Assembly (NCBI GenBank): GCA_034530615.2
Contig: JAVRCV020000033.1
Span: 64,001-128,000 of the forward strand
Length of the DNA: 64,000 bases
Direction: 5' to 3'
Source of the DNA: Aulosira sp. ZfuVER01
GTDB taxonomy: Bacteria; Cyanobacteriota; Cyanobacteriia; Cyanobacteriales; Nostocaceae
Below, one piece after another: positions 778 through 46,750 of the stretch. A program made the position numbers and the translations under genes. The first letter of the stretch is position 1, and each line of letters starts with the position of its first letter. The notes below the pieces were generated by a model. That model had not been told where the DNA came from, did not search any database, and worked only from the letters and a program-made list of their open reading frames with translations.

Positions 778-1656
778 ATGTCAAATGACTTGTTTAGAAT
801 TGCAAATACTATACCTGCCTGTGTACCAGGTTGGTCATTAAAAGAGCGAGATGCTCAGTTTATTGAGTTGTTAATGCCTATATGGGAATGGTGTTACCGT
901 TACTACTTTCAAGTAAAAACTGACGGATGGCATTACATACCAACAGAAAGAAAAGTACTACTGGTTGGCTCTCATAATGGTGGAATGGCTTCTCCCGACT
1001 TGATAATGATGATGTACGATTGGTTTTCTAGATTTGGAACTCAGCGTTTGGTCTATGGTTTGATGCATCCTTACGCTTGGCAAGTAAGTCCAAAAATAGG
1101 TGAACTAGCTCAAAAATTAGGAGCCATTGTTGCACATCCAAAAATGGCTAATGCTGCTTTTGATATAGGTGCTAGCGTTCTAGTATATCCAGGAGGACAA
1201 TATGATATGTTTCGTCCTCACAGCCAACGCCATAAAATTAATTTGGCAGGAAATAAGGGCTTTATCAAGCTAGCTTTAAAACAAGAAGTTCCAATTATTC
1301 CTTTGATATCAGTAGGCGCTCATGATACGTTGATAGTTTTATTTGACTGTTATGATTTATTAAAACAATTGCATCATTGGGGATTGCCGTGGTTATATCA
1401 ATTAGACCCAGGAGTCTTTCCAATTTACTTAGGTTTACCTTGGGGCTTGGCTATTGGCCCTTTACCAAATATTCCTCTACCTGTCCCAATTCATACTCGT
1501 GTTTGTCATCCCATTATTTTTGAGCGATATGGCAAGGATGCAGCGAAGGATCGTGACTACGTGAATGCTTGTTATGAATTAGTTCATATACAAATGCAGC
1601 ATGAGCTAGATAAATTAGTGAGAGAGACTCAAAAATCTAATGGTCTGTCCCATTGA
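778..1656 (+). CDS. lysophospholipid acyltransferase family protein
   Basis: LLVGSHNGG, LVYPGG and KGFIKLAL..VPIIP acyltransferase blocks. Confidence 0.85.
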   Translation: MSNDLFRIANTIPACVPGWSLKERDAQFIELLMPIWEWCYRYYFQVKTDGWHYIPTERKVLLVGSHNGGMASPDLIMMMYDWFSRFGTQRLVYGLMHPYAWQVSPKIGELAQKLGAIVAHPKMANAAFDIGASVLVYPGGQYDMFRPHSQRHKINLAGNKGFIKLALKQEVPIIPLISVGAHDTLIVLFDCYDLLKQLHHWGLPWLYQLDPGVFPIYLGLPWGLAIGPLPNIPLPVPIHTRVCHPIIFERYGKDAAKDRDYVNACYELVHIQMQHELDKLVRETQKSNGLSH

Positions 1657-1671
1657 TTTTGATAGGCTGCA

Positions 1672-1704
1672 AGCTCCCCGACTTTTTGAAGAAGTCGGGG
1701 AGCT
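1672..1704. repeat. small palindromic dispersed repeat / terminator-like hairpin
   Basis: AGCTCCCCGAC-N11-GTCGGGGAGCT; near-identical core at 30071-30104. Confidence 0.75.
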
Positions 1705-1854
1705 ATTAGTATAACTGCGATCGCTTTTTCAACAACACAGCCACAAAAGTTATCTGATAACATTTCACACCCATTCTTCTGTTATTTGCATTTCAAAACA
1801 GAAATCTAACGAGCGCGATAATGCTTTATAGTACGATGATATAAGCATGAAAGC

Positions 1855-2709
1855 GTGAATACAAAACTCATCATTTCTCCTCAAGAACTCACGTCTGTGT
1901 TAGCAGAAAATTCATCACAAGCTGTAATTATCGATACGCGGAGTCAAGAAGAGTATGCTATTTCTCATATTCCTCACTCTATCAATATTAGAGATTTTTT
2001 TACCTATATTTTAGAGAATTCATACCCAGCAGGATTAAATAAATTGCAAGAGCATTTTAGTGAAATTCTCAGCAGGGTAGGAATATCTGGTGCAGAATGG
2101 TTAATTGTTTATGAAGACACTTTAAATCGAGGTTACGGTCAATCTTGTCGAGCAGCTTTCTTACTGAAGTATTTGGGTTGCGCTCAGGTATCTATCTTAC
2201 ACGGAGGATATAGAGCATGGCTCAGGGAAGGATTAGCTACTACTAATGAAGTACCATTACGTGAAAGTAGCTTATTTAGATTGCATCCCAACCCTGACAT
2301 GATGGTGACTACCACCGAGATGTTGCAAGCAATTGATAATCCTGCAATTATTAAATTAGATGTGCGCGATCGCGATGAATGGCTGGGATTGAGTTCTTCT
2401 CCATATACTCCTGATTTTTGTCCTCGTAAAGGTAGAATTCCTAATGCTGTGTGGCTAGAATGGCATCGTCTGATGACATCGGATTCGGAAATGCCCATGT
2501 TTCGCTCAAAAGCGGAAATCTTAGAAATTTGTGAATCTGTAGGTATTACTTCCGAATCTATTGTATATATTTACTGTTTTAAAGGTTCTAGGGCAGCGAA
2601 TACTCTGATTGCTCTGCAAATAGCAGGAATTTCCGCTCTTAATTATTTTGGCTCTTGGAATGAATGGTCTCGCAACTTTTCGCTACCGATTGATAGCAGA
2701 GTCATCTGA
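1855..2709 (+). CDS. two-domain rhodanese-like sulfurtransferase
   Basis: IIDTR..EY...HIP; LDVR..GRIPNA; active-site YCFKGSRA; C-terminal YFGSWNEW signature. Confidence 0.9.
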   Translation: MNTKLIISPQELTSVLAENSSQAVIIDTRSQEEYAISHIPHSINIRDFFTYILENSYPAGLNKLQEHFSEILSRVGISGAEWLIVYEDTLNRGYGQSCRAAFLLKYLGCAQVSILHGGYRAWLREGLATTNEVPLRESSLFRLHPNPDMMVTTTEMLQAIDNPAIIKLDVRDRDEWLGLSSSPYTPDFCPRKGRIPNAVWLEWHRLMTSDSEMPMFRSKAEILEICESVGITSESIVYIYCFKGSRAANTLIALQIAGISALNYFGSWNEWSRNFSLPIDSRVI

Positions 2710-2732
2710 AGAAGGCAACCCGAAATGGAGCG

Positions 2733-3533
2733 TTAGCCTTTGAAAAGGATATCGTACAGTGACAGCAAAATCTCCACCACAATGAGAATTACCACATACC
2801 ACTCTACTCGCTGACTACTACTATGCTGCATGAACTCCAGCACTGTTTGCGCAGTTTGGGAAATTAGCTCTAGTTTGCGTTCTAAGGCGTGGTGACGCTC
2901 ACGGATTTCGTATTCATCCTCCAAACGCAGATATAAGTTTTCTAGCTGTGGGTATTCCCACAGCAAGTCCGGCTTATCGATGATCTCTACTCGTCCCACA
3001 ATCTTATGTTGAACTAACAAAGTAGTACCGAGTTGACGCAGTAATTCCCGACTCTGGCGTGTACTTCTGTATTCACTCTGGAGACTAGCTGCAAACGGTT
3101 CAATTTGGTCGAATACAGTAGCTAGGCTAGTTTCATAATGAGATAGCACAACACTCTTAGCGAGAATATCAGCCACTATCTGTAAGCGTTCTACACTAAA
3201 ATCATGTAGCAAAATTTTTCCTTCCTTAACTCTTTCACTTTCCGCAAGTTTGAGCTGAACTTCCACTTCTTCTGTTTCTGGGTCAGCAAAAGAGTCACTA
3301 ACTTGAGAGGATAGTTTATTTAAGAAGGCTACCTTTTCTACAGGCTCAAGGTTAAACAGGACAACTGCACCATAGTCGAGCAGTACCGCACAGCCATGTT
3401 CACCTACTGTAACCATTACTGGCATAGTCGCCAAGCAAACGTAATTCTCCAATGTTTGTAGGTTAATCTTCTTACCAAGGAATAGGGCCTGCGCTCTAAA
3501 GCTATCTCTGTCATTAAAAAGGAGTTTTTGCAT
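2733..3533 (-). CDS. RMD1/DUF155 family protein
   Basis: YGAVVLFN, LAKSVVLSHYE, DKPDLLWE, EDEYEIRER..LERKL and C-terminal EWYVVILI TM helix. Confidence 0.85.
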   Translation of the reverse strand: MQKLLFNDRDSFRAQALFLGKKINLQTLENYVCLATMPVMVTVGEHGCAVLLDYGAVVLFNLEPVEKVAFLNKLSSQVSDSFADPETEEVEVQLKLAESERVKEGKILLHDFSVERLQIVADILAKSVVLSHYETSLATVFDQIEPFAASLQSEYRSTRQSRELLRQLGTTLLVQHKIVGRVEIIDKPDLLWEYPQLENLYLRLEDEYEIRERHHALERKLELISQTAQTVLEFMQHSSSQRVEWYVVILIVVEILLSLYDILFKG

Positions 3534-33942: not shown

Positions 33943-34396
33943 GGTTAATTCTCCATTATTGGGCTTTATACTTGAAACACAGATTATCTTGTTAGTTATG
34001 AGTTGAGCTTACTTTAGACTTGCTCATTAATCAAAGCAAACACTCTTTATTATCAGAATAATAACAATTTAATAATATTGCATATTTAGTTATTCTAAAA
34101 CTTCTGAGATTAAATCTATTATTTTACACATATTCTATGCCACTTTTTTCAATTTTATACAAGTCATTTAACTACTATAGTTTTATCAATTTACAGTAGT
34201 TCATTAAACAAGACTTCATGCCATAACCTGGTTATAACCCTGTGATAAACACCCTCTAACTTGTGTGTATTTTCTAAACATTTAATTATTAAGAACTGTC
34301 ATACTTTATTCATGAAAATGACAAGTGATTATCAAATACTTTTAATATTCTAGATAAAGTGAATGTTGTAGGCTTGTACAGTAAATCAAAAAAATT

Positions 34397-34777
34397 ATGG
34401 ATAACACTTTACTTTGCCTAATTTTAGGCTTGATAGCAGGAATAGTAAGTGGAATCACCGGAATTGGTGGGGGTATAATTATTTTACCCGCCTTAATTTT
34501 TGTATTTGGTTTTTCTCAACACCAAGCTCAGGGAACTACATTAGCTTTACTTGTTCCTCCTATTGATATCTTGGCTGCATGGACTTATTACAAACAAGGT
34601 TATGTAGACATTAAGATAGCAACATTGCTTTGTATAGGTTTTGTATTAGGTGGGTGGTTTGGAGCAAAAATAGGAACGGGATTATCTAATGTAATTTTGG
34701 CGAGGATTTTTGGAGTCTTATTACTGGTAAGTGCTATCAGAGTCATGTTTATAAATCCAGGCGATGCTAATTTATGA
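34397..34777 (+). CDS. half-size TauE/SafE family protein
   Basis: SGITGIGGGIIILP, QHQAQGTTL, YYKQGYVD. Confidence 0.85.
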   Translation: MDNTLLCLILGLIAGIVSGITGIGGGIIILPALIFVFGFSQHQAQGTTLALLVPPIDILAAWTYYKQGYVDIKIATLLCIGFVLGGWFGAKIGTGLSNVILARIFGVLLLVSAIRVMFINPGDANL

Positions 34778-34791
34778 TTTATTTCTTATAT

Positions 34792-36159
34792 TCAACAGCT
34801 TTCGCTATTATCTTGGGGAATCTTTACTGTGAAAATTGTTCCAATACCTACCTCACTTTTTACATAAATTTCTCCCTGATGTAGTTCAACACATTTTTTC
34901 ACCACAGCTAATCCTAGTCCAGTACCAACAATTTTGCCCACATTTTCTGCTCGATGAAAAGGCTCAAATAAATGTTTCTGAAATTCCTCCGGAATTCCTA
35001 GACCAAAATCTTTAACTTGGAAAATTATTGAGTTTGGTTCACCACTGAGAATTAACAATATATCTGCCTCTTCTGGCGAATATTTTATGGCATTAGAAAG
35101 CAAATTACTAAGAATTGAGTACAGCAAATTTTCATCTAAAGTTGCGTGAGTACAGTTATTTTGACTGATAAATTTAATTGGGTGTTGTGGTTGATTACAA
35201 AACTGAATATCTTCAATTAAGTTTAGACAAAATGCTTCCAAATCTATAATATCTGGATGAAATTCAAGTTTACCAGCTTCTGCCCTAGTTAGAGTCAGAA
35301 TATCTGTCAGCAATTGGTTCATTGATCTAGCTGAAGATTGAATCCGATATAGATTTTTGACTTTCTTTTCTTCTGTCCACTGCTGATTACTCTGAGCTAA
35401 CAATTGAGCCGAACCTAAAATAATACTTAAAGGTGTGCGAAATTCATGGGAAACCATCGAAAAAAAGCGCAGTTTCAGTTCGCTGAGTTCTTTTTCTTGA
35501 GCTAATGTCCGTTGCAAAGCTTCTGCTTGCTGGCGCTTAACCAATTGTTGATAAAGCAAGGCGTAAACAGCCAACAAAATAGCAAAACTCAGCACCGTAC
35601 CCAGGAATTCAATCAACATCCGGTTGTGAATATTTTCCTGAGAATGTTTAACCGAAATTTCTAATAACTCTTCTTCTCTCACTTGCAACTGAGCTAGAGT
35701 TTGCCGAATTTCACCACGAGTTTGGTTAATTTTCGTAGCTTGCAGAGCAACTGTTGATTTGCCTAATTGCTGAAGGTTAAGCGACTCTTGAGAAAATTCC
35801 ACTCTTTGAAAAATTAAGGCTTTTAGTTTTATGAGTTGCTGCTGTTGAGAGGGGTCATCAGCAAGTTGTTTTTGTAACTTTTTGACTTTGGCATTTAAGC
35901 TTTGTATTGCCTGATTGTAACGTTCTAATTCCGATCGCTCTCCAAATAGAATATAGCCTCTACGTCCTGCTTCGGCATCAGTCAAGGTAGCGAAGATATC
36001 AATCAGGCTTTTCATTGCCTCATGTGTGTGCTTCACTTTATTGCTACTTTCAATTAACTGAGTAGCATTTTGGTAAGAAATAAAACTAACTATACCCATT
36101 AATAAGAAAGATAAACCAAAACCAGAGGCAATCCATTTCTTTTCCAATGACCATTTCAT
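34792..36159 (-). CDS. CHASE3 sensor histidine kinase
   Basis: TM-CHASE3 (DAEAGRRGY)-TM; SHEFRTPL; NLLSNAIKYS, D.G.G, GTGLGL. Confidence 0.9.
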   Translation of the reverse strand: MKWSLEKKWIASGFGLSFLLMGIVSFISYQNATQLIESSNKVKHTHEAMKSLIDIFATLTDAEAGRRGYILFGERSELERYNQAIQSLNAKVKKLQKQLADDPSQQQQLIKLKALIFQRVEFSQESLNLQQLGKSTVALQATKINQTRGEIRQTLAQLQVREEELLEISVKHSQENIHNRMLIEFLGTVLSFAILLAVYALLYQQLVKRQQAEALQRTLAQEKELSELKLRFFSMVSHEFRTPLSIILGSAQLLAQSNQQWTEEKKVKNLYRIQSSARSMNQLLTDILTLTRAEAGKLEFHPDIIDLEAFCLNLIEDIQFCNQPQHPIKFISQNNCTHATLDENLLYSILSNLLSNAIKYSPEEADILLILSGEPNSIIFQVKDFGLGIPEEFQKHLFEPFHRAENVGKIVGTGLGLAVVKKCVELHQGEIYVKSEVGIGTIFTVKIPQDNSESC

Positions 36160-36175
36160 AAGACTACCTTTAAAT

Positions 36176-36203
36176 TCCCCGATTTTTACCCGATATTTAC
36201 CCC
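36176..36203 (+). promoter_or_regulatory. 11-bp-period direct repeat triplet A1
   Basis: TCCCCGATTTT TACCCGATATT TACCCC. Confidence 0.7.
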
Positions 36204-36595
36204 TTATCTCTACAAGTTATTGTTAAAATAATAATTGAATTAACCTCTTTTACACTATACATTCTTCAAACTATTTTAATTACTTAGTTTGAAGAATTTT
36301 AATTTTTATATATCTCAACTACAAAGCTTATTATACTATTCAGATTTGATTCATCAACTTACTGATTTGATGCGCTACGGCTAGTACAAGCACGCTAGGT
36401 AAGCGGTAAATGCGTTACTGCGTTAAGCGAACCTTGAAGTAAGTGACTGTCGTTAAGGTTAGCGAAGCAGTAGCAACTTTGTGGAATTCTCTTGTTCGCT
36501 CTTGGCGTTATTTGAGGATAGAGTAATACAGTTATAGAATATTACAGTTTGTAATGTTTTTTTAAATCCCGTGTCTTTAATAGCTATTCAAAAAT

Positions 36596-36628
36596 TACCC
36601 GATTTCTACCCGATTTCTACCCGATTTT
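36596..36628 (+). promoter_or_regulatory. 11-bp-period direct repeat triplet A2
   Basis: TACCCGATTTC TACCCGATTTC TACCCGATTTT. Confidence 0.75.
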
Positions 36629-36700
36629 TTGACATATAAGGTGTAAAGTTCAAAATAGAGAAAAACTCATAAGACGATTGATTTTTTTTGTTACACTTAT

Positions 36701-36925
36701 ATGTCTAATTTTTCAGTTAATATTGCTAACATTGTACTGACTAATGAACAGTATTATAAGCTCAAATTTTATGCAAACAGTCATCATGTATCGCTTCAAA
36801 AATCAATTATATTGCTTATTGATTCTCTGCCTAGACCTTCTAAAAATAGTAAAATTTTAAAAAATAGATATTCAATGTTATCTGCTAGAAACTTTCTGCA
36901 AAGGTTTGATAATATTCAAAATTAG
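36701..36925 (+). CDS. small ribbon-helix-helix-like protein, copy A
   Basis: 39/73 gapless identities with 42151-42372; IVLT.EQY.KL..YA....S....I.LL.D pattern. Confidence 0.7.
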   Translation: MSNFSVNIANIVLTNEQYYKLKFYANSHHVSLQKSIILLIDSLPRPSKNSKILKNRYSMLSARNFLQRFDNIQN

Positions 36926-36927
36926 CT

Positions 36928-38745
36928 ATGCATAAGTTTCCTAGGAGAACAAAATCTAAAATTTCTCATAATACTTTATTCAAAAAGCAGCAAAGTTTTA
37001 GACAATATATAAATAATAGGCTTGCTACTAATACCAAAAATCAAATATCTAACACTAGAAACAGATTATTTGTAGTTTGGTGCATATTAATGTTGGCTGG
37101 GTTAAGAATAGGTATTAATTTGTATCAATTGCAAATTGTGCAGGGAGCAAAGCTCACGAAGAAAGCTAGAGAACAGCAAATGGTAACTTTGCGGCCTTTT
37201 ACACCTCGACGAATGGTTGTAGATCGCAACGATCGTGTCTTAGCTCTTGACAGGATTGTGTATACTCTATACGCCCATCCTCAACTGTTTCAAAAAAAAC
37301 CAGAAGACGTAGCACAACACCTAGCTGTAATACTTAACAAAAATGCTGATGAATTAGTCAAAATATTTCAAGGAAAAAAAAGTGGCATTTTACTTGATGC
37401 TGCTGTGCCAGAAGAAATTGCGACTCAGATATTTGCATTGCATCTTGATGGCTTAGAACTAACTCAAAAATATTTGCGATTTTATCCAGAAGCAGATTTA
37501 ACCGCAGATGTAGTGGGTTACATCAATACAGAACGTCAAGGTCAAGCTGGTGTGGAATACAGCCAAGAAAATTTACTAGCGCGTTCTGCACAAACTGTAA
37601 GACTCAGGCGACAAGGAAACGGAGCATTGCTACCAGATGATGCACCAACAGGATTTCTCAATATTGATGACTTGCGATTACAACTAACAATTGATAGCCG
37701 CATTCAACGGATAGCGCGAGCTGCACTTAAACAGCAAGTAGAAAAGTTTAGGGCGAAACGCGGAGCCGTAATTGTGATGGATGCGTTGGATGGTTCGTTG
37801 CTCGCTTTAGTCTCTGTGCCCAGTTATAACCCTAATGAATATTCTAAAGCTGATATTTCGCTATTTAAAAATTGGACAATAGCAGATCTGTATGAACCAG
37901 GATCGACTTTCAAACCTTTAAATGTGGCGATCGCATTGGAGACTGGTGTAATTAAACCAGACGATATGTTTGACGATCCTGGTTTTATCAGAGTGGGCGA
38001 TCGCACCATTAAAAATGCCGAGCAAAACAGCGATCGCACGATCGATATTGCTCAAATTTTACAACACTCCAGCAATGTTGGCATGGTGAAAATTATGCAG
38101 CGATTGCCAACTTCAATCTATTACCAATGGCTACAACGCTTAGGGCTGGGGCAAACTATCCATACAGATTTGCCATTTGCGGTTAGTAGTCAGCTCAAAA
38201 GTCAAGAAAAATTTATGGCTTCACCCATTGAGAAGGCGACAGCTTCCTTTGGGCAAGGCTTTTCCCTCACAGCACTACAGCTAGTGCAATTGAACGGCGC
38301 TTTAGCTAACGGGGGCAAATTAGTGACACCTCATGTAATTAAAGGATTGATTGATAGCCAAGGACAGATGCATTATTCACCCACTCTCCCAACACCACGC
38401 CAAATTTTCTCACGCATGACAACTCAACAGGTAATTAAAATGATGGAAACTGTAGTAGAACAAGGAACTGGCAAAGCATCAAAGATTTCCGGTTATCGTA
38501 TAGCTGGTAAAACTGGTACAGCGCAAAAAGCCAATTCTAGTGGTGGTTATCAAAAAGGCGCTTATATCACCAGTTTCTTGGGTATATTGCCAGCAGAATC
38601 TCCTCATTATGTAGTTTTAGCACTGGTAGATGAAGCGCAAGGAGCAAATGCTTACGGTGGTACGGTTGCCGCACCAATTGTTAAATCTTTAATCAACGCA
38701 CTGATTCCCCTAGAGCAGATTCCGCCAAGCCAAGGAGCCAAATAA
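36928..38745 (+). CDS. ftsI: class B penicillin-binding protein (FtsI-like)
   Basis: TM, R..VDRN, G..GVE, LTID, YEPGSTFK (SxxK), SSN, GKTGTAQK. Confidence 0.85.
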   Translation: MHKFPRRTKSKISHNTLFKKQQSFRQYINNRLATNTKNQISNTRNRLFVVWCILMLAGLRIGINLYQLQIVQGAKLTKKAREQQMVTLRPFTPRRMVVDRNDRVLALDRIVYTLYAHPQLFQKKPEDVAQHLAVILNKNADELVKIFQGKKSGILLDAAVPEEIATQIFALHLDGLELTQKYLRFYPEADLTADVVGYINTERQGQAGVEYSQENLLARSAQTVRLRRQGNGALLPDDAPTGFLNIDDLRLQLTIDSRIQRIARAALKQQVEKFRAKRGAVIVMDALDGSLLALVSVPSYNPNEYSKADISLFKNWTIADLYEPGSTFKPLNVAIALETGVIKPDDMFDDPGFIRVGDRTIKNAEQNSDRTIDIAQILQHSSNVGMVKIMQRLPTSIYYQWLQRLGLGQTIHTDLPFAVSSQLKSQEKFMASPIEKATASFGQGFSLTALQLVQLNGALANGGKLVTPHVIKGLIDSQGQMHYSPTLPTPRQIFSRMTTQQVIKMMETVVEQGTGKASKISGYRIAGKTGTAQKANSSGGYQKGAYITSFLGILPAESPHYVVLALVDEAQGANAYGGTVAAPIVKSLINALIPLEQIPPSQGAK

Positions 38746-38953
38746 ATATCTGACATTAGGAATATTGCTTTGGCGATCGCTCTTAATTTACCCTAAAACT
38801 TAGGGTGCTAAATTATTTTGTAACGCAACTACCAACAATAGGGAAATTAGAATTTTTCAGAACTAATTCCTGAATTCAATTATTTATAAATCAACTTGGT
38901 ATTCTCCAAGATTTTATTTGAGTTAAACTTACAAGTGAGGAAGTGAAATTACC

Positions 38954-40879
38954 GTGTCTTCATCTAAAACTTTTGATAAGAAACCATCACAAATTCAAAC
39001 TTTACCCAGTACTGAATTTTGGAAAGAAGTTGGTCAAGTAACTGGTGGTACTCTCCTATCAATTATGTTGTTATCAACTGCTGTGATATCTGGAGGATTA
39101 GTTGGTTTAGCCATTAGTTTCCGGGATTTACCAGATGTTAGACAGTTACGAAACTTTTTTCCCGCAGAAACAACTTATATATATGATATTAAAGGCAAGC
39201 TGTTAGCACGCATACACGGTGAAGCTAATCGGCAAGTAGTACCTTTAGATGGAATTTCTCCCAATTTAAAACGAGCTGTATTAGCTAGCGAAGACAGTAA
39301 TTTCTTCGAGCATCACGGTATTAATCCCGTTGGGATTGGACGTGCTGCAATAACTAACTTCGTAGCTGGAGGTGTACGAGAAGGTGGTTCGACAATCACC
39401 ATGCAGTTGGTGAAAAATCTGTTTTTATCCCAGAAGCGTGCTGTTACCCGGAAAATTGCAGAAGCAATATTAGCAATTAGGTTAGAGCAAGTTCTGACTA
39501 AAGACCAAATTTTAGAAATGTACCTCAACCAAGTTTACTGGGGACACAATAATTATGGTGTACAAACGGCAGCACGCACTTACTTTAACAAATCAGCTGC
39601 AAATTTGACTTTGGCTGAATCTGCAATGATGGCGGGATTAATTCCAGCCCCAGAAGAATATAGCCCATTTGTAAACATGAAATTGGCTAAACAAAGACAA
39701 AAAGAAGTACTGGGGCGGATGTTGGAATTAAATTGGATTAGCCAGCAAGAATATAATGATGCTCTCAAACAACAAATCAAACTAGGTAAAATTAAATCAT
39801 TTCAAGGTAGTGCTTTGCCTTATGTTACCAATACCGTAGCTCAGGAAATAATTAAAAAGTTTGGGCGTGAAGCCTTGCTCAAAGCCGGAATGCGGGTACA
39901 AACTACAGTAGACACCAACTTCCAATTGATGGCAGAACAAACTATTAAGAAATGGCATCAAACCCTTGAAAGTGAAGGGATATATAAAAATCAAATGGCT
40001 TTAGTAGCTATCGATCCGCGCACGCATTTTGTCAAAGCACTAGTTGGTGGTATTGATGCCAAAAAGAGCGAATTTAACCGCGCCACTCAAGCACAGCGTC
40101 AGCCTGGATCTTCTTTCAAGCCATTTGTCTACTATACTGCTTTTGCCAGTGGTAAATTCACACCCAATTCAACAATACTAGATACCCCAGTTAGTTATCG
40201 AGATGGTAGCGGTTGGTATTATCCACGCAACTATGATAATAGCTTTATGGGCGCAATATCGATTCGTACTGCCGTTGCTCTGTCTCGTAATATTCCAGCA
40301 ATCAAAATTGGCAAAGCTGTAGGCATGAATAAAGTCATTGAAACTTGCCGTACCCTAGGAATTATGAGTCCAATGGTTCCGGTAAGTTCTCTGCCATTGG
40401 GGGCAATTGGTGTGACACCACTGGAAATGGCTAGTGCTTATGCAACTTTTGCTAATTATGGTTGGCAATCACCAGCGACGATTATTGCCCGTGTGACAGA
40501 TAGTAGTGGTAATGTGTTGCTAGATAATACTCCAAAACCGCAACTAGTTCTTGACCCTTGGGCATCAGCAGCAACTTTAGATGTGATGCAATCGGTAGTG
40601 AATGAAGGAACTGGTAAAGGTGCAGCTATCGGCCGTCCAGTCGCCGGAAAAACCGGTACAACTTCCTCAGAAAAGGATATTTGGTTTATTGGCACTGTAC
40701 CGCAGTTAACGACTGCTATCTGGGTAGGGAGGGACGACAACCGACAATTAGCTCACAGCGCAACAGGTGGTGGTACTGTGGCTCCTGTCTGGCGTGATTT
40801 TATGCAGAAGGCACTCGAGGATGTACCAGTAGAAAGATTTCAGCCACCTTCTAAGTTTTCTCGTCCTAAAGCAGATTGA
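38954..40879 (+). CDS. class A penicillin-binding protein (PBP1A family)
   Basis: EDSNFFEHHG, GGSTITMQL.KN, RK..E transglycosylase; RQPGSSFK, SRN, GKTGT transpeptidase. Confidence 0.92.
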   Translation: MSSSKTFDKKPSQIQTLPSTEFWKEVGQVTGGTLLSIMLLSTAVISGGLVGLAISFRDLPDVRQLRNFFPAETTYIYDIKGKLLARIHGEANRQVVPLDGISPNLKRAVLASEDSNFFEHHGINPVGIGRAAITNFVAGGVREGGSTITMQLVKNLFLSQKRAVTRKIAEAILAIRLEQVLTKDQILEMYLNQVYWGHNNYGVQTAARTYFNKSAANLTLAESAMMAGLIPAPEEYSPFVNMKLAKQRQKEVLGRMLELNWISQQEYNDALKQQIKLGKIKSFQGSALPYVTNTVAQEIIKKFGREALLKAGMRVQTTVDTNFQLMAEQTIKKWHQTLESEGIYKNQMALVAIDPRTHFVKALVGGIDAKKSEFNRATQAQRQPGSSFKPFVYYTAFASGKFTPNSTILDTPVSYRDGSGWYYPRNYDNSFMGAISIRTAVALSRNIPAIKIGKAVGMNKVIETCRTLGIMSPMVPVSSLPLGAIGVTPLEMASAYATFANYGWQSPATIIARVTDSSGNVLLDNTPKPQLVLDPWASAATLDVMQSVVNEGTGKGAAIGRPVAGKTGTTSSEKDIWFIGTVPQLTTAIWVGRDDNRQLAHSATGGGTVAPVWRDFMQKALEDVPVERFQPPSKFSRPKAD

Positions 40880-40920
40880 AAATATTAAGGTGAGATTAGG
40901 TATCAATAAATATTTGAGAA

Positions 40921-41598
40921 ATGAGGATTTTGGTAGTTGAAGATGATGTCCAACTAGCAGAGATGCTAATGGAAGCCCTCACTGACCGTCAATATGTGGT
41001 GGATGTAGCCCAAGACGGTGAAGAAGCATGGGATTTTATCAAGAGCTTGGAATATGACTTAGTGGTGCTAGACATAACCTTACCTAAATTAGACGGTGTT
41101 AGTTTTTGTCAACGCTTGCGATCGCATCACCGGAGTCTGCCTGTCCTCATGTTAACAGCACGCGATACCCTGGCTGACAAAGTTACTGGCTTAGATGCAG
41201 GCGCAGATGACTATATGGTGAAACCTTTTGAAATGCCAGAACTGATGGCTCGCATTCGCGCACTGTTGCGCCGCAATCAAAGCACAGCCTCTTTTCCTGA
41301 CCTCAGTTGGGGCGAGCTACATTTAAATTCCAGCACTTATGAAGTCACCTATGCAGAACATCCCTTACATCTGACACCAAAAGAATTTGCCCTTCTAGAA
41401 CTTATGGTTTCTAGCGGTCGGCGGGTACTCAGTCGCACTGGAATTATTGAGCGCATCTGGTCACTTAATGACCCACCCAGCGAAGAAACGGTGAAATCTC
41501 ACATTAAGAGTCTCAGAAATAAACTCCGAGAAGCAGGCGCTCCTGATGATTTTATTGAAACAGTGCATGGACTGGGCTATCGTTTAAAGCAGCTTTAG
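40921..41598 (+). CDS. OmpR-family response regulator
   Basis: VEDD, LDITLP, GADDY.VKP, LTPKEF, IETVHGLGY. Confidence 0.93.
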   Translation: MRILVVEDDVQLAEMLMEALTDRQYVVDVAQDGEEAWDFIKSLEYDLVVLDITLPKLDGVSFCQRLRSHHRSLPVLMLTARDTLADKVTGLDAGADDYMVKPFEMPELMARIRALLRRNQSTASFPDLSWGELHLNSSTYEVTYAEHPLHLTPKEFALLELMVSSGRRVLSRTGIIERIWSLNDPPSEETVKSHIKSLRNKLREAGAPDDFIETVHGLGYRLKQL

Positions 41599-41603
41599 AG
41601 AAC

Positions 41604-41631
41604 TACCCGATTTCTACCCGATATTTACCCG
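41604..41631 (+). promoter_or_regulatory. 11-bp-period direct repeat triplet B1
   Basis: TACCCGATTTC TACCCGATATT TACCCG. Confidence 0.75.
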
Positions 41632-41816
41632 TTAGCTCCACAATTAATTGTTAAAGTTCTACAAAGAATAACTCCTTTGGAACACCACAATTTCTCCAAA
41701 CATCTTAATTATTTCGTTTGGAGATTTTAATTATTAATAAACAACGCTGAATTATTTAGTGACGGGAAAATCCTTAGTTTTATCACTAACAAACTTAAGG
41801 GTACATCTACACAAAT

Positions 41817-41860
41817 AAAGTCCACCTATCTTTGATATCGTTGGAAGGTAGGTGGACTTT
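41817..41860. terminator. 16-bp stem hairpin followed by a T-run
   Basis: AAAGTCCACCTATCTT-N12-AAGGTAGGTGGACTTT then GTTTTT. Confidence 0.55.
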
Positions 41861-42045
41861 GTTTTTAAGATAGCGACTTTTATACTAAAATTTTAGATTT
41901 TTAATTTAGAATTTGAGATTAATAATTAGCTCATTTCAATGTTTGTTAACTCCTGAAATGCAATAGTTAACAGTCATCAGCCAATAGCAAAAATAAATAT
42001 TTTTTCAAACTTAAATTTCATTTCTAAATTATTGATTTTCATGAA

Positions 42046-42078
42046 TCACCGATTTTTACCCGATTAATACCCGATATT
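42046..42078 (+). promoter_or_regulatory. 11-bp-period direct repeat triplet B2
   Basis: TCACCGATTTT TACCCGATTAA TACCCGATATT. Confidence 0.7.
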
Positions 42079-42150
42079 TTAACTTCTAGGGCGTAACATC
42101 TCAGAAGACCCGCAATTTTGCAACATGGTTTCCATTTTGAGTAAATTCCT

Positions 42151-42372
42151 ATGTCGCAATTTTCAGTAAATATTGCCAATATCGTTCTCACTAGTGAGCA
42201 ATATCTTAAGCTCAGAATTTATGCAGAAACTCGTCAGATATCAGTGCATGAGACGATTAGGTTACTTGTTGATTCTCTGCCAGTACCGTCCAGAGCTAGC
42301 AAAAAAATAGATAAAATCCATCCTTTTTTACTATCTAGAAAACTCCTGCAAACTTTTTTTAATGTTCAGTAA
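42151..42372 (+). CDS. small ribbon-helix-helix-like protein, copy B
   Basis: Paralog of 36701-36925; LTSEQYLKLRIYAETRQISVHETIRLLVDSL. Confidence 0.7.
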   Translation: MSQFSVNIANIVLTSEQYLKLRIYAETRQISVHETIRLLVDSLPVPSRASKKIDKIHPFLLSRKLLQTFFNVQ

Positions 42373-42434
42373 TTGAACTCTGAACGTCAACAGCTAATTA
42401 CCAATCTTTGAATTTTGTAGGTAGGAATTTGGCC

Positions 42435-42996
42435 ATGAATAATCTTGTTCCTCTAAGTTTAGTTGGATCTTTGGAAAATCCTATCCCAGAAACACATTCT
42501 CAACCCACTTATGCATTAATTTCAGTTCATGGAGATCCTACGGCTGAAATTGGTAAAGAAGGAGCAGGTGGACAAAATATCTACGTGCGGGAATTAGGAT
42601 TAGCATTAGCAAAAAAGGGATGTGAGGTTGATATATGTGCATGGTACAACCGGGCTGTTAGTACCTCCAGGTAATCATCACGATCTAACAAGAGCTATTA
42701 GTAATTTGTTAGACAACCCTAATTTAAGGCAATTTTATGGTAATGCTGCATATAGTTGGGTTCAGTCTCATTTTAGCACTCAAGCAGTCACCAACCAAAT
42801 TTACGAACTCTATCAATCACTAACGCTTTCTACGTTCGTCTAAGAAATAATTCAAACTCATAATGTAACGCCGAACTTAGAAAAGCAAATTCAAAATTTG
42901 TTGAAGTCAAAAGCTTTAAAGCCGAGCGAAATTAAAGCTCTAGAGAAATTAGTTGACTCCTTTTCTAATGGTACTGTGCAGTGGGTTAATAGTTAA
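42435..42996 (+). pseudogene. GT4 sucrose-phosphate-synthase-like glycosyltransferase with large internal deletion
   Basis: ALISVHGDP.AEIGKE.AGGQNIYVRELG joined out of frame near 42637 to TGLLVPP...LY; further TAA at 42841 before an open tail to 42996. Confidence 0.8.
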
Positions 42997-43105
42997 TTAA
43001 GAGAGAACGGGGAAATCCGCATAATTCAAATCAAATTTGCTGCCAGCTTATCTATATCGTTGCCTAGGTTGCTGAATTACAAACTTATCTGTATACATCT
43101 GTCTT

Positions 43106-43236
43106 GAAAAGTTTTGCGCCGGGAAACCCGGACGCGCAACGCCAGTTGCTTTAAGTCGGGGAACCCGACGACAGTCGCTTCAAGTCGGCAAAGCCGCCCA
43201 CAGCGCTGTCTCCCCAACGCACTGGCTCAACTTTTC
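43106..43236. repeat. three nested small dispersed repeats
   Basis: Nested stems GAAAAGTT/AACTTTTC, GCCAGT/ACTGGC, GACAG/CTGTC, each with its own short GC hairpin. Confidence 0.7.
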
Positions 43237-43512
43237 GCTGCGTCCATCCTTTTCAATCAGCGGTTAATTATTTCTTGTTCTCACCAATGTAGAAAGTGCT
43301 ATGTAACAGATCGTCTTGATGTTCATGAGGATTTATCATGCTGGAATTAATTTATGAAATTTTAAATAGCGAAGAATGCATTGATTTACGTCAATTTTTA
43401 CACTAACTGCAACAACAAAATAAACAATTTTGAATTGGAGAAATCCCTGTATTTTATCCAGATATGCAGATTTTTTATTATTATCAAACTTGCTAAAGTT
43501 AAGGAATTAAAG

Positions 43513-44283
43513 ATGAAACTACTTCTAGTGATTGACTTAGACAATACTCTGCTTGAAAAAGACCAAGGTACTACGGTTTTAAACCAAAGGTTAGCAGGAT
43601 TCCGCAAGTATATCTATTTGCTCTATGTTACAGATAGCTCTTATACTTCTAGTCGTAAATTTATAGCAAAAGCAAAGCTCTTGAAACCAGATTACTTAAT
43701 TGCTAGTTTAGGTACTGAGATTTATCAACAGGGTTTGATTTTAGAACAGGATTGGGCACATTACATCTCAAAAGACTGGAATAGAGATACAGTTTGGGCA
43801 ATTGCTAGCCAATCTTCGAGATTGAAACTTCGCTCTAAAAGTGAACAAACTCGTTGGAAAATTAGCTTTAAGCTAGATACGGCTGCTGAACTTCATGTTA
43901 TTGATGATTTGCAAGATTTATTAAACTTTGCGGGATTATCGGCTCAGGTTATTTTCAGTAATGGGCGCGATGTTGATATCGTACCCAAAAGCAGTAATAA
44001 AGGTAAAGCTACTGCATATCTGCAACAACTGTTGCAAGTGGAACTAGAAGCAACTATTGTCTGTGGAGGTTCGGGAAATGACATTAGCCTATTTCAACTA
44101 CCATCACCGGGAATTATTGTGAGTAATGCTCAGACACAATTGCTTCAATGGCATTATAAGACGCATTTCCCTTGGCACTATTTAACTCATTACCCTCATG
44201 CTGCTGGTATTCTGGAAGGACTGGTTTATTTTAATATTTTGCCATTCCCTAACAGCTGGCGATCGCAACCCATTTCCAATTAA
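43513..44283 (+). CDS. sucrose-phosphate phosphatase-like HAD-IIB hydrolase (start MKLLLV)
   Basis: DLDNTL, KPDYLI.S.GTEIY, DI.P..SNKG.A, CGGSGND. Confidence 0.8.
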   Translation: MKLLLVIDLDNTLLEKDQGTTVLNQRLAGFRKYIYLLYVTDSSYTSSRKFIAKAKLLKPDYLIASLGTEIYQQGLILEQDWAHYISKDWNRDTVWAIASQSSRLKLRSKSEQTRWKISFKLDTAAELHVIDDLQDLLNFAGLSAQVIFSNGRDVDIVPKSSNKGKATAYLQQLLQVELEATIVCGGSGNDISLFQLPSPGIIVSNAQTQLLQWHYKTHFPWHYLTHYPHAAGILEGLVYFNILPFPNSWRSQPISN

Positions 44284-44305
44284 CTTTGATGATAGGCATA
44301 AATCA

Positions 44306-44340
44306 GCGTAGACACGAAGTGGCTTGTCGTCAGACATCGC
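44306..44340. repeat. small dispersed repeat inserted in a HIP1 site
   Basis: GCG-[27 nt ..GTCGTCAGAC]-ATCGC. Confidence 0.55.
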
Positions 44341-44461
44341 TTATATTACAACTCTTACTGATTCATAGGGTGCATCTTCAAAAGCCTCTGCTAAGTAGCA
44401 GCGTTACTCGTTCTTTGCTTTACAGCCTATATTTCACAACTTCTCAACAGAGGCTATTGGT

Positions 44462-44731
44462 TTAGTAGGCTCTGCGGGTAAAAGTGTAATAAAGCCATAA
44501 ACCAATAATGGCACCAATGATTGAGACGATAATACCGCCAATACTCAATCCTGCTGAGGTAAAGGCTAACGTTCCTGTGGTTAACAAAGTGTATACACTT
44601 CCACCAATGAGCGCACCAATCATTCCCAGGAGTATTGTGCCGAAAATGTTACCCCCTTGATGTCCGGGATAAATCATTTTTGCGATCGCACCTGCAATCA
44701 GTCCTAAAACGATCCAAGCTAGAATATTCAT
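44462..44731 (-). CDS. GlsB/YeaQ/YmgE (transglycosylase-associated) membrane protein
   Basis: MNILAWIVLGLIAGAIAK.IYPG..GG...TILLG.IGA.IGG. Confidence 0.9.
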   Translation of the reverse strand: MNILAWIVLGLIAGAIAKMIYPGHQGGNIFGTILLGMIGALIGGSVYTLLTTGTLAFTSAGLSIGGIIVSIIGAIIGLWLYYTFTRRAY

Positions 44732-45012
44732 AAGTTTTCTCCATTAACAACTTATTTCGTTTAACTCACCGACAATCCAAGTAGAAACTCTGCCTGTGTT
44801 TGTAATCAGGCAAAAATTATTATTTCTCTTGTAGCCGACGAATTCAGCCCGTCCTTTTAGCTATGTATAGAATATTATTTCCGTCAATACGATTTCCACT
44901 ATCTGAAGTAAGAATATCTATCTAATAAACGTCAACAAACCAAAACTGGCTTATTCAGAAATAAGATGAGCTTGCCTCTAATACCAAGATACTTATTTTA
45001 GTGTGAGTATAA

Positions 45013-45084
45013 ATAAAAGCTTGTGCTGATATGTGCCATCGCTGTGCTGAATTTTGTCGGCAAATGTCAATGGCCACTGCATAA
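45013..45084 (+). pseudogene. C-terminal remnant of a Cys-rich four-helix copper-storage (DUF326/Csp-like) protein
   Basis: KACADMCHRCAEFCRQMSMATA*; in-frame stop immediately upstream. Confidence 0.55.
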
Positions 45085-45198
45085 GTCATTGTAAATACTC
45101 GCTGGCTCTTGTAATCTTGTAGTCAGCCAGTGTCGCAGTTTAAAAGTAGGCAGCAGATAAAAACTAACGACTTTTGAAATAGGAAAAGAAGCATTCAA

Positions 45199-45318
45199 TC
45201 ACAGCAGTGCTGTTAAGGGGTTATAAGTCCACTAATTACGCCGGAAATAGTTAGATAACAGCCCAAGAAATAGAACGATCGCACCGATCGCCGTGATTAA
45301 TATATTGAGTTCATCCAA
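45199..45318 (-). pseudogene. N-terminal remnant of a membrane transporter (CPA1 antiporter-like)
   Basis: TTG-start MDELNILITAIGAIVLFLGLLSNYFRRN*WTYNPLTALL*. Confidence 0.4.
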
Positions 45319-45727
45319 AGCTTAGTAACCGATGTTGATACTGATTTTCTCACTGTGCCAATATAAATATATTTATGTGGTTACTATCAAAGACCGCATC
45401 TACCAATAGGAGAATAATCATATTTATCTCTTTGGTTGATACCAGATTTTGATAATTGATGATTATCAGTCAAAAAATGAAAATTTTTAAATAAAATATA
45501 CCAAAATATAAAAAGGCGATCGCTTGTTTTTGTGAAAATATGGTAGTGGGATCGAAAATTCAAGCAAATTAAATATCCAAGAGCACATAACAGACTTTAG
45601 GAGGATGATTATTCAGGCAAAAACAATTAAAAGTGAATGCAAGAAGCTGCAAGCAAGCTGCTATCTACAAATCCCGACTACTTTGACTTTTACAAGCATG
45701 ATTAATCACAATCAGCGATGAGCAAAA

Positions 45728-46750
45728 ATGGCAGATACAGACAATGGTTACTCTCGATTAACTCGTGGCGCACCTTTGGCAGTAATGCTTGCAGCGTCAC
45801 TCTACATCCTGTACCAACTTTTACCAGTATTAGAACTAGTAGCTATTGCCGCATTAATTGCTTTAGTTTTGCGAACAATGTTGCGGTTTTTGCAAAAGCT
45901 GGTTAAATCACAGGATGCTGCCGTTGTGCTATTAATTGGATTGATCCTTGGCTTTGGCCTATTGCTTGCTACGGTAGTGATACCTAACGCTACATTTGAA
46001 GTTCAAAATTTACTAACCACCTTGCCGACTTATCTCAATACATTGACAGGAGATGTTGAGCGACTGCGGCACAAATTTACCTTTGTTCCTGACATTTCCT
46101 TATCACTAATACAATTGCGGAACTTTATCAACCAATTACTAGGGGGAGTACCAGTTTTTTTGGGTCAAGCCTTTAACTTCACACTAGAGTTAGTGGCAAC
46201 AGTAATTCTAGCGCTATACATGGCTTACGATCCTAATTCTTTGGTAAATGGTACTTTACGGTTAGTTCCCCGCCAACATCACCAACGATTCACACGAGTC
46301 CTCAAGGCTTGTCGAACTAGACTACGTGGTTGGATTTTTGGTACAGGAATTGCCATGATATTTCTCGGTGCAGGAGCCGCCCTTGGGCTGTGGATTTTAG
46401 GAATTCCGTCAGCATTTGCCTTTGGTATTATTGCAGGTTTATTCGAGATTATTCCTTACTTTGGTTCGATTGTTGGTACTTTTTTACCTGCATTAGTAGC
46501 ACTGAGCATTTCACCGATAAAGTTAGTATTTGTTCTCATACTATTTTTAGTTCTCAATCAGATAGATGCTCATATTGTTCAACCATTGGTAATGGGACAG
46601 CAAGTTAATATACATCCTGTGATGGTAATTGTGACGTTTCTAGTCATGGGTAAGCTATTTGGATTGATTGGGGTGCTGCTTGCAGTTCCAGCGGCCGCTA
46701 TCATTGTTACGCTAATAGATGAATTCACGCTTCAGCAGTCTGAAACGTAA
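45728..46750 (+). CDS. AI-2E family transporter
   Basis: G.FEIIPYFG, NQID...QPLVMG...IHP, FGLIGVLLAVP. Confidence 0.9.
   Translation: MADTDNGYSRLTRGAPLAVMLAASLYILYQLLPVLELVAIAALIALVLRTMLRFLQKLVKSQDAAVVLLIGLILGFGLLLATVVIPNATFEVQNLLTTLPTYLNTLTGDVERLRHKFTFVPDISLSLIQLRNFINQLLGGVPVFLGQAFNFTLELVATVILALYMAYDPNSLVNGTLRLVPRQHHQRFTRVLKACRTRLRGWIFGTGIAMIFLGAGAALGLWILGIPSAFAFGIIAGLFEIIPYFGSIVGTFLPALVALSISPIKLVFVLILFLVLNQIDAHIVQPLVMGQQVNIHPVMVIVTFLVMGKLFGLIGVLLAVPAAAIIVTLIDEFTLQQSET

Follow-up and report, generated by a model that had tools for sequence, protein, structure and literature searches.

Direct-repeat arrays beside a CHASE3 kinase and an OmpR-type regulator in Aulosira sp. ZfuVER01: putative activator-dependent promoters of Yfr1-like small RNA candidates and of wall and sucrose genes

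We analyzed a window of 64,000 nucleotides from the cyanobacterium Aulosira sp. ZfuVER01 (GenBank assembly GCA_034530615.2, contig JAVRCV020000033.1, positions 64,001 to 128,000 of the forward strand). The window contains two related cassettes, copy A and copy B, that lie among genes for a CHASE3 sensor histidine kinase, an OmpR/PhoB-family response regulator, cell wall synthesis and sucrose synthesis (Table 1). Each cassette carries two arrays of 11-bp repeat units and a small open reading frame (ORF). The best explanation of the whole, to which we assign a probability of roughly 0.6 on the basis of sequence, is that the regulator binds the arrays over the -35 region of promoters; the first promoter of each copy (P1) would drive a small RNA resembling the cyanobacterial RNA Yfr1, and the second (P2) would drive the operon behind it.

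The four arrays are all located on the + strand, with an array-to-array spacing of 420 bp in copy A and 442 bp in copy B. In both copies, the distance from the last unit to the start codon of the small ORF is 72 bp, and copy B begins 5 bp past the stop codon of the regulator gene. The array starts, these spacings and the identity of 39 of 73 residues, without gaps, between the two encoded proteins (OrfA and OrfB) bear out the shared architecture and the placement of copy B that a preliminary description of this DNA had claimed. Two further claims held in part. The repeats had been called triplets; four arrays of 11-bp units are present, but the third unit is frequently degenerate, as in A1 (TACCCCTTATC) and B1 (TACCCGTTAGC). 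Alignable DNA had been reported after the first array; the first 137 bp are alike (102 of 139 positions identical), but the middle part of approximately 290 bp is not (143 identities, 134 mismatches and 33 gaps), and alignment between the copies is limited to this initial stretch, the second array and the ORF. The middle region with the hairpin at 41813-41864 is not kept in all relatives.

The sequence CCCGAT-N5-CCCGAT occurs five times in the 8.03-Mb genome, and all five matches fall inside the four arrays. A weight matrix trained on 30 arrays of relatives only, which covered the repeats and excluded the -10 element, scored the four arrays at 45-50 bits and the next best genomic site at 15.7 bits; at a threshold of 20 bits, it returned four arrays in the whole genome. 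The genome-wide scan thus showed the arrays to be non-random, and an origin as ordinary tandem repeats was ruled out by uniqueness, orientation and the co-occurrence described below. Because the matrix scan found no site in this genome beyond the four arrays, the regulon appears to be local here. On another contig, C56, we observed four related two-unit sites (TCCCC..GTTC TCCCCGATT) at positions 23139, 28599, 30390 and 31105, within 13 kb of another paralogous regulator gene (C56:17573-18235); these sites probably form a sister regulon with its own box.

The arrays stand in a fixed register to a -10-like hexamer. Counted from the first T of unit 1, a TANNNT hexamer begins 48 bases downstream in 80 of 88 arrays, compared with 0-13 at other offsets; of the 109 arrays in the enlarged set, 95 have it at this position and 3 others have it one unit further on. 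Unit 3 falls at about -38 to -28, that is, on the -35 position, and a TG-n extension precedes the -10 at P1 of both cassettes. Promoters activated by PhoB or OmpR carry direct repeats with a period of 10-11 bp that lie at a set distance from the -10 and cover the -35. Here, we found both a regulator with REC and Trans_reg_C domains and 11-bp repeats in fixed -10 register, and because of this register each array is likely to be an activator-dependent promoter. Regulator dimers would bind the 11-bp units head to tail at about -60 to -28, and the bound regulator would recruit RNA polymerase to a -10 that lacks a good -35. Transcription is predicted to start about 60 nt past unit 1, near 36236, 36656, 41664 and 42106. 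A sigma-70-like site on the - strand (36357-36330), considered as a possible kinase promoter, was rejected, as it was not conserved in seven relatives.

Across relatives, the arrays travel with the kinase-regulator pair and not with the small ORF, in line with the tie to a CHASE3 kinase and an OmpR-type regulator that had been proposed. Among 19 loci chosen by the regulator alone (L039 was removed as a duplicate), all 19 had arrays and 5 had an intact small ORF, and the kinase gene adjoined the regulator gene in 37 of 39 loci; the loci are related and the counts are not independent, so all such numbers are tallies, not tests. With a cut-off of E<=1e-105, the regulator was found in 34 of 251 genomes of the family. 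A 19-nt array pattern was present in 32 of these 34 genomes versus 31 of the 217 others, and the backwards control of the pattern matched about 40 of the 251, close to the rate in regulator-less genomes. Eight pattern hits outside the cut-off were inspected; five adjoin a 70-71% identical regulator orthologue that falls below the E cut-off, and the remaining three comprise an array and RNA candidate with no regulator in 15 kb, an isolated array and a hit that the matrix did not recognize. In an order-wide sample of 17 more distant loci, 16 of them from other families, the kinase was adjacent in 17, arrays lay within 1.5 kb in 13 and a sucrose-phosphate synthase gene (sps) followed the regulator in 2. 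In some loci (L044, L051, L053 and L069), arrays face the regulator gene directly. We therefore regard it as very probable that the four arrays are promoters bound by this regulator. The signal perceived by the kinase would be an envelope or osmotic one, upon which the kinase would phosphorylate the regulator; a literature search on CHASE3 ligands returned nothing on cyanobacteria. At one locus, L060 (G008:C258:54023-54159), an array and an RNA candidate lie beside insertion-sequence-like ORFs with no regulator in 15 kb.

We compared this pair with the CcaS/CcaR system, as described in the accessible portions of PMC5737509 and PMC8256508. Both regulators are of the OmpR type, the window regulator having 59-62% identity to G-box-adjacent regulators (133 and 140 of 225 residues), and both sites are 11-bp direct repeats located before a -10 next to the regulator gene; 9 of the 11 bases of the G-box unit, taken from PMC8256508, match the window unit. 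The genome's own G-box, found with two mismatches at C36:117141, lies between a regulator gene and a phycobilisome-linker gene. We take the C36 regulator to be CcaR by its position; it is the closest paralogue of the window regulator (140 of 225 residues identical; 126 for the next). In contrast, the kinase of the described system is a light-sensing GAF cyanobacteriochrome, whereas that of the window has a CHASE3-HisKA-HATPase architecture. The unit core is ACCCGAT here, with three units, and TTCCGAT or TTACGAT there, and the G-box precedes phycobilisome linker genes there, whereas wall, sucrose and ion genes are the putative targets here. Additionally, this genome keeps its G-box locus on C36 as a separate one, and no window array matched the CcaR G-box within two mismatches. 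In the tree, the clade of the window regulator was supported at 100/99. By analogy, the window regulator would thus work like CcaR without being CcaR.

Both first arrays lead to a C/U-rich unpaired stretch, a hairpin and a U-rich tail, approximately 70 nt in all. The preliminary description had noted a hairpin between the arrays; what it had missed is the -10 hexamer in fixed register, the close similarity of the motif to the CcaR G-box, and that the alignable stretch consists of a putative promoter plus a conserved hairpin RNA candidate. The fold z-scores of the hairpins are -4.7 (A) and -3.8 (B). We picked 36 hairpin candidates after arrays, one of which was false, and aligned 30. In the 9-pair stem, 96.9% of the cells pair and three of the nine pairs are changed on both sides; none of 500 shuffles reached the observed covariation score, although, as the tool warns, related sequences can outscore such shuffles without structure. 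One stem pair is C-G in B, U-G in the A copies of relatives and U-A in the A copy of the window. Conservation across genera extends to the unpaired 5' part, and that of RNA A ends just past the tail (eight sequences). A covariance model, R1, gave two hits in this genome, A and B alone, and hits in 13 of 151 family genomes, 12 of which are regulator-positive; in total, about 25 genomes carry the RNA candidate. R1 linked a diverged hairpin outside the training set only weakly (L064, E 0.014) and missed the triple units of L061, L062, L065 and L066. The unit persists in L036, L037 and L038, in which the gene that follows it (counting those of annotated size) is convergent, and it is intact even at 90-130 bp from the array (L022, L040, L042 and L044). 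The locus of a relative was assembled as contigs, which cannot show ends, in four RNA runs of one study. An Rfam identity was rejected, the single match in 12 kb of the window being a chance one. Taken as a whole, this pattern suggests that the hairpin units are probably real stand-alone small RNAs.

Two further observations concern these units. A common insert of about 50 bp separates the array from the RNA candidate in L022 (9083-9135) and L044 (10690-10745); a different regulator may bind there. In L061 (7714-8266), L062, L065 (6856-7400) and L066, two to three tandem array-promoter units follow the regulator, each with an ACAC-rich stretch and a hairpin of different sequence; these are possibly an expanded set of small RNAs.

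Alternatively, the arrays could be regulator-dependent promoters while the hairpin serves as the terminator of the regulator gene (in B) or as an operon leader or attenuator, with no trans-acting RNA. We consider this improbable, though it retains real weight: hairpin B lies 95 nt past the regulator stop and may also end the mRNA of the regulator, the P1-hairpin unit is the sole array upstream of pbp1A in L036, L038, L047 and L055, C/U-rich stretches that resemble an anti-Shine-Dalgarno sequence easily arise, and expression of the RNA is predicted only. However, a strong array with an in-register -10 just upstream is needless for a terminator, and copy A has no co-directional gene upstream. 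Moreover, the unpaired 5' part that is conserved across genera moves as a unit with the rest, and this unit persists in G008, with no regulator in 15 kb.

Given a stand-alone RNA, its likeness to Yfr1 bears on the function. In the available parts of the cited papers, Yfr1 is reported to be universal and nearly constitutive (PMC6974561, PMC4734099) with a fully conserved 13-nt motif (PMC4734099), and the targets validated in Nostoc PCC 7120 include murC, alr, mraY, porins and Omp85 (PMC6974561). The genome's own Yfr1 is located on C65 (the single hit of RF01116). RNA B carries the Yfr1 blocks ACUCCU and ACACCACA with four extra bases between them, and its seed score against the Yfr1 core was 20, which 0.28% of 20,000 random 45-mers reach; L064 scored 28. 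We screened 5,762 ORFs, represented by 15,474 candidate start regions, for targets by duplex energies, ignoring accessibility. Among these ORFs, the murC ribosome site came fourth with Yfr1, second with A and sixth with B. Six homologues of reported Yfr1 targets, a set drawn from the top list of Yfr1 itself, had a mean percentile of 2.6% with A, and none of 22 shuffles did as well; with B the mean was 9.1%, a value that 2 of 22 shuffles attained. The number of shuffles was small. The start sites of ftsI, the regulator and the kinase ranked 1,100-3,300 and are not targets by this test.

The candidates share with Yfr1, as far as the consulted excerpts on RF01116 describe it, unpaired ACUCCU and ACACCA blocks ahead of a 3' hairpin and the predicted pairing with the ribosome sites of murC, alr and mraY. 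They differ in that the motif is split by 2-5 extra bases, the 5' hairpin is lacking and the hairpin sequence is another one; in addition, the candidates are not beside trxA, are patchy (13 of 151 family genomes) and lie behind a two-component promoter, whereas Yfr1 is nearly constitutive and universal. Yfr10 of marine picocyanobacteria is the nearest precedent in the available text of PMC6778093 for a second, regulated RNA with a Yfr1 motif. It is likewise condition-dependent and located off the Yfr1 locus, but Yfr10 is dark-induced, with the regulator given as unknown, and has the identical motif in a terminal loop; the candidates described here have an inexact motif that is unpaired and lies 5' of the hairpin, the genera are heterocyst-forming and there is a candidate regulator.

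We tentatively suggest that the P1 promoters produce Yfr1-like RNAs of about 70 nt that act on Yfr1-type wall targets; they would pair with the ribosome-binding sites of wall-precursor mRNAs (murC) and lower translation. A bolder proposal, which we hold to be speculative, is that the CHASE3 system is an inducible entry to the constitutive Yfr1 network. Under osmotic or drying stress, RNAs mimicking Yfr1 would silence murC, mraY and alr with the system's own PBP1A, FtsI and sucrose genes on, and the duplicated seeds would be tuned to AGGAG and AGAGG ribosome sites.

Several results weigh against regulator-bound promoters that produce Yfr1-like RNAs. At the DNA level, a generic sigma-70 scan called none of the proposed -10s a full promoter, the -10-like hexamer of the CcaR G-box promoter lies 2 nt further out than those here, and the tree leaves the link between the clade of the window regulator and CcaR as an open fork, not as resolved sisters. 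A generic scan called neither hairpin a textbook terminator (long loop, interrupted U run). Yfr1 was chosen after the motif had been seen, which makes the comparison post hoc. RF01116 gave no hit in the window at 34000-46000 with E<=5, and R1 does not match Yfr1. The exact 13-nt motif occurs twice in the genome, neither time in the window; it is split in B and diverged in A, and the candidates have one 3' stem rather than the motif-between-two-stems layout of Yfr1. The seed score of A, 12, is background (20% of random 45-mers reach it). One of 22 shuffles of A, and likewise of B, ranked murC as well as the RNA itself did; for B, mraY comes at rank 832 and one porin at rank 1392, and porins rank poorly. 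Finally, over 25 genomes the murC site was equally conserved in those without the RNA, and there is consequently no signal of RNA-murC co-evolution.

Three side observations touch Yfr1. The second exact 13-mer of this genome lies at C60:45939, away from the Yfr1 gene. Start regions of the hopanoid pathway (hpnH and a squalene-synthase-like gene; C51:42645 on the - strand and C60:52719 on the + strand) ranked high for Yfr1 or the candidates. In other families, L132 (1337, - strand) and L134 (2229, + strand) have an array followed by a long hairpin with a GUGAGGAG-like stretch, which is complementary to the Yfr1 core.

The P1 RNAs might also be real but serve as sponges or decoys for Yfr2, or have targets outside wall synthesis, which seems decidedly unlikely. 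According to the accessible part of PMC6778093, Yfr2 pairs with Yfr1-motif RNAs in Prochlorococcus, and this genome has three Yfr2-like genes with which B forms duplexes of -14 to -16.5 kcal/mol. However, these are weaker than Yfr1-Yfr2 (-21 to -23 kcal/mol) and B-murC (-23.3 kcal/mol), and A-Yfr2 reaches only -12 to -13 kcal/mol.

The small proteins had been described as CopG- or ribbon-helix-helix (RHH)-like. Neither ORF had a Pfam or NCBIfam hit, the ESM Atlas gave unnamed clusters only, with weak HicB, NikA and RHH_1 leads, and distant homologues matched RHH families below the cut-off. The model has helices at 15-27 and 32-42 with a confidence (pLDDT) of 68, and the fold search list consists almost entirely of RHH proteins. 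The likeness is weak, however: no strand was called in the monomer, and the best Z was 4.1 with a root mean square deviation of 4.1 over 48 residues. Compared with the RHH families (CopG/MetJ/Arc; RHH_1, RHH_10, HicB), the proteins may share a strand-helix-helix N-terminus, as read from the model, whereas they differ in the lack of a Pfam hit, an extra conserved C-terminal helix and a hydrophobic putative strand. The Arc register, which we assume to apply, places I8, N10 and V12 of the putative strand toward the DNA; RHH strands usually make basic DNA contacts, and I, N and V are atypical. The ratio of nonsynonymous to synonymous substitution rates (dN/dS) was 0.34 for the A type (15 pairs) and 0.20 for the B type (36 pairs), with 0.12 over the first 45 codons of B. 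These values, well off 1, indicate purifying selection on the ORFs. At 50% identity, this small family forms 9 clusters; an ORF with 70% identity is annotated in Tolypothrix sp. PCC 7601. The ORF was detected in 9 of 40 relatives, and in the contig search, a single ORF as query had no match, whereas an ORF alignment found 11 loci.

The idea that the small protein is a needed part of the circuit was not supported, because arrays persist in 14 of the 19 regulator-picked loci, where the ORF is broken or missing. It is very unlikely that these proteins are array-binding autorepressors in the style of CopG or Omega with the two-component pair incidental: an array does lie 72 bp ahead of each ORF and the fold search does list Omega, a binder of direct heptad repeats, but arrays are also kept in those 14 loci and in G001, G003 and G010, whose whole genomes gave no ORF match when searched, they face the regulator gene in four loci, and the putative strand has no usual basic contacts. 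In our reading, the small ORF heads the P2 operons as an accessory gene; for its product, a role as co-regulator or as partner of the sucrose-phosphate synthase (SPS) is possible.

P2-A would transcribe orfA-ftsI-pbp1A and, by read-through, the regulator itself, and P2-B would transcribe orfB-sps(-STAS-sus)-spp. The gene orders of the loci supported the claim that the arrays are directed toward wall genes (ftsI, pbp1A) as well as sucrose genes. The sucrose-synthesis-like genes reported after copy B are indeed sucrose genes, but in this strain sps has lost about 880 bp, the sucrose synthase gene (sus) is cut to about 90 bp and the STAS gene is gone; other sps-like and sus genes are present elsewhere in this genome. 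A repeated element with about 40 genomic matches (window 43081-43302) occupies the place of the STAS gene of relatives. The arm with the penicillin-binding proteins (PBPs), both ORFs, the four promoters and both RNA candidates are intact. The intact sps orthologue of L018 matches PDB 6kih Tll1590 (E 3.5e-127).

In relatives, the stable core consists of a CHASE3 kinase gene divergent from the OmpR-type regulator gene, two arrays, the small ORF, an sps-type glycosyltransferase gene and the sucrose-phosphate phosphatase gene (spp), with STAS and sucrose synthase genes sometimes between the last two. Westiellopsis, Pelatocladus and Fischerella records (L030, L032-L034) have the core in a simple form, L022 has pbp1A with its own array between kinase and regulator, and the genus of the window and L027 have ftsI, pbp1A and a second cassette there. 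From this gene order, we infer that the simple form was kinase<>regulator-P1-RNA-P2-orf-sps-spp, and that pbp1A first and ftsI later came to lie between kinase and regulator, together with another copy of the P1-RNA-P2-orf cassette. The genes behind arrays in relatives include the small ORF, pbp1A, sps, the regulator (four loci) and GlsB-family genes, as well as P-type cation ATPases, a ClC-CBS-Usp channel and an efflux adaptor; an MscS channel lies within the cluster in L023 and L048. The array ahead of a GlsB-family gene, present in L016-L019, was not found in the window. Such target genes suggest that the cue is osmotic, ionic or one of drying, and we lean slightly toward osmotic stress or desiccation as the stimulus. 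The circuit as a whole would couple the remodelling of the wall with sucrose synthesis, probably when cells meet salt or drying.

Table 1. Features of the two cassettes and of their neighbors (positions in the window).
Feature	Position	Strand	Remarks
CHASE3 sensor histidine kinase	34792..36159	-	Pfam CHASE3-HisKA-HATPase; partner of the regulator
Promoter P1-A (putative)	36176..36229	+	three units 36176-36208; TG-n-TAAAAT -10 at 36224-36229; register test
Candidate small RNA A	36236..36306	+	C/U-rich 5' part without pairing, then hairpin 36261-36297 and a U-rich tail; predicted ends
Promoter P2-A (putative)	36596..36649	+	three units 36596-36628; TAAAGT -10 at 36644-36649
orfA, 74 aa, RHH-like	36701..36925	+	first gene of predicted orfA-ftsI-pbp1A-regulator unit
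Extra ftsI-type class B PBP	36928..38745	+	69% paralogue on contig C49
Extra class A PBP (pbp1A)	38954..40879	+	two paralogues at 81-82%
OmpR/PhoB-family response regulator	40921..41598	+	Pfam; close CcaR paralogue; putative array binder
Promoter P1-B (putative)	41604..41657	+	three units 41604-41636; TG-n-TAAAGT -10 at 41652-41657
Candidate small RNA B	41664..41735	+	Yfr1-like seed in two parts (41671-41676, 41682-41689), then hairpin 41693-41724 and a U-rich tail; predicted ends
Strong hairpin between RNA B and P2-B	41813..41864	.	-30.8 kcal/mol, z -8.3
Promoter P2-B (putative)	42046..42099	+	three units 42046-42078; TAACAT -10 at 42094-42099
orfB, 73 aa, RHH-like	42151..42372	+	probable ancestral position, first gene before sucrose-phosphate synthase
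Sucrose-phosphate synthase-type pseudogene	42408..42994	+	internal deletion of ~880 bp at 42634/42637
Sucrose synthase gene-start remnant	43304..43428	+	STAS gene and rest of sus missing; intact in L018
Sucrose-phosphate phosphatase	43513..44283	+	Pfam S6PP; L018 orthologue over TIGR01485 cut-off

Response-regulator control of sucrose genes is described for OrrA of Anabaena PCC 7120, and sps-sus-spp are grouped in the sucrose clusters of Synechococcus PCC 7002 and Microcystis (PMC4390843, PMC9971976, available parts). In contrast to the NarL-type OrrA, the regulator here is of the OmpR type and lies with a CHASE3 kinase inside a cluster with PBPs and RNA candidates. These reviews, in the same parts, name OrrA alone for Nostoc. 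We found no paper on the kinase-regulator pair, the motif or the RNA among titles and the beginnings of abstracts, with subscription papers mostly out of reach and with the unscreened supplement of PMC12873609 (RNA structures of 202 genomes) as a place that might list the hairpin. The regulatory logic is of a known kind; the motif, the sensor, the regulon and a candidate Yfr1-like RNA under putative two-component control are new.

The locus provides candidates for the sensor, the regulator, the DNA site and the geometry of the promoter in a second route by which sucrose would be synthesized and the wall remodelled. Such a route concerns soil- and mat-dwelling cyanobacteria, for which the reviews, in their accessible text, describe the NarL-type OrrA only. 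A CcaR paralogue with a box similar at 9 of 11 bases is relevant to cross-talk with the CcaS/CcaR optogenetic tool, and this regulator and box may offer a natural orthogonal variant for it. Yfr1 is reported to be near-constitutive, and an inducible Yfr1-like RNA, if true, would make it testable how the wall regulon is tuned in filamentous strains.

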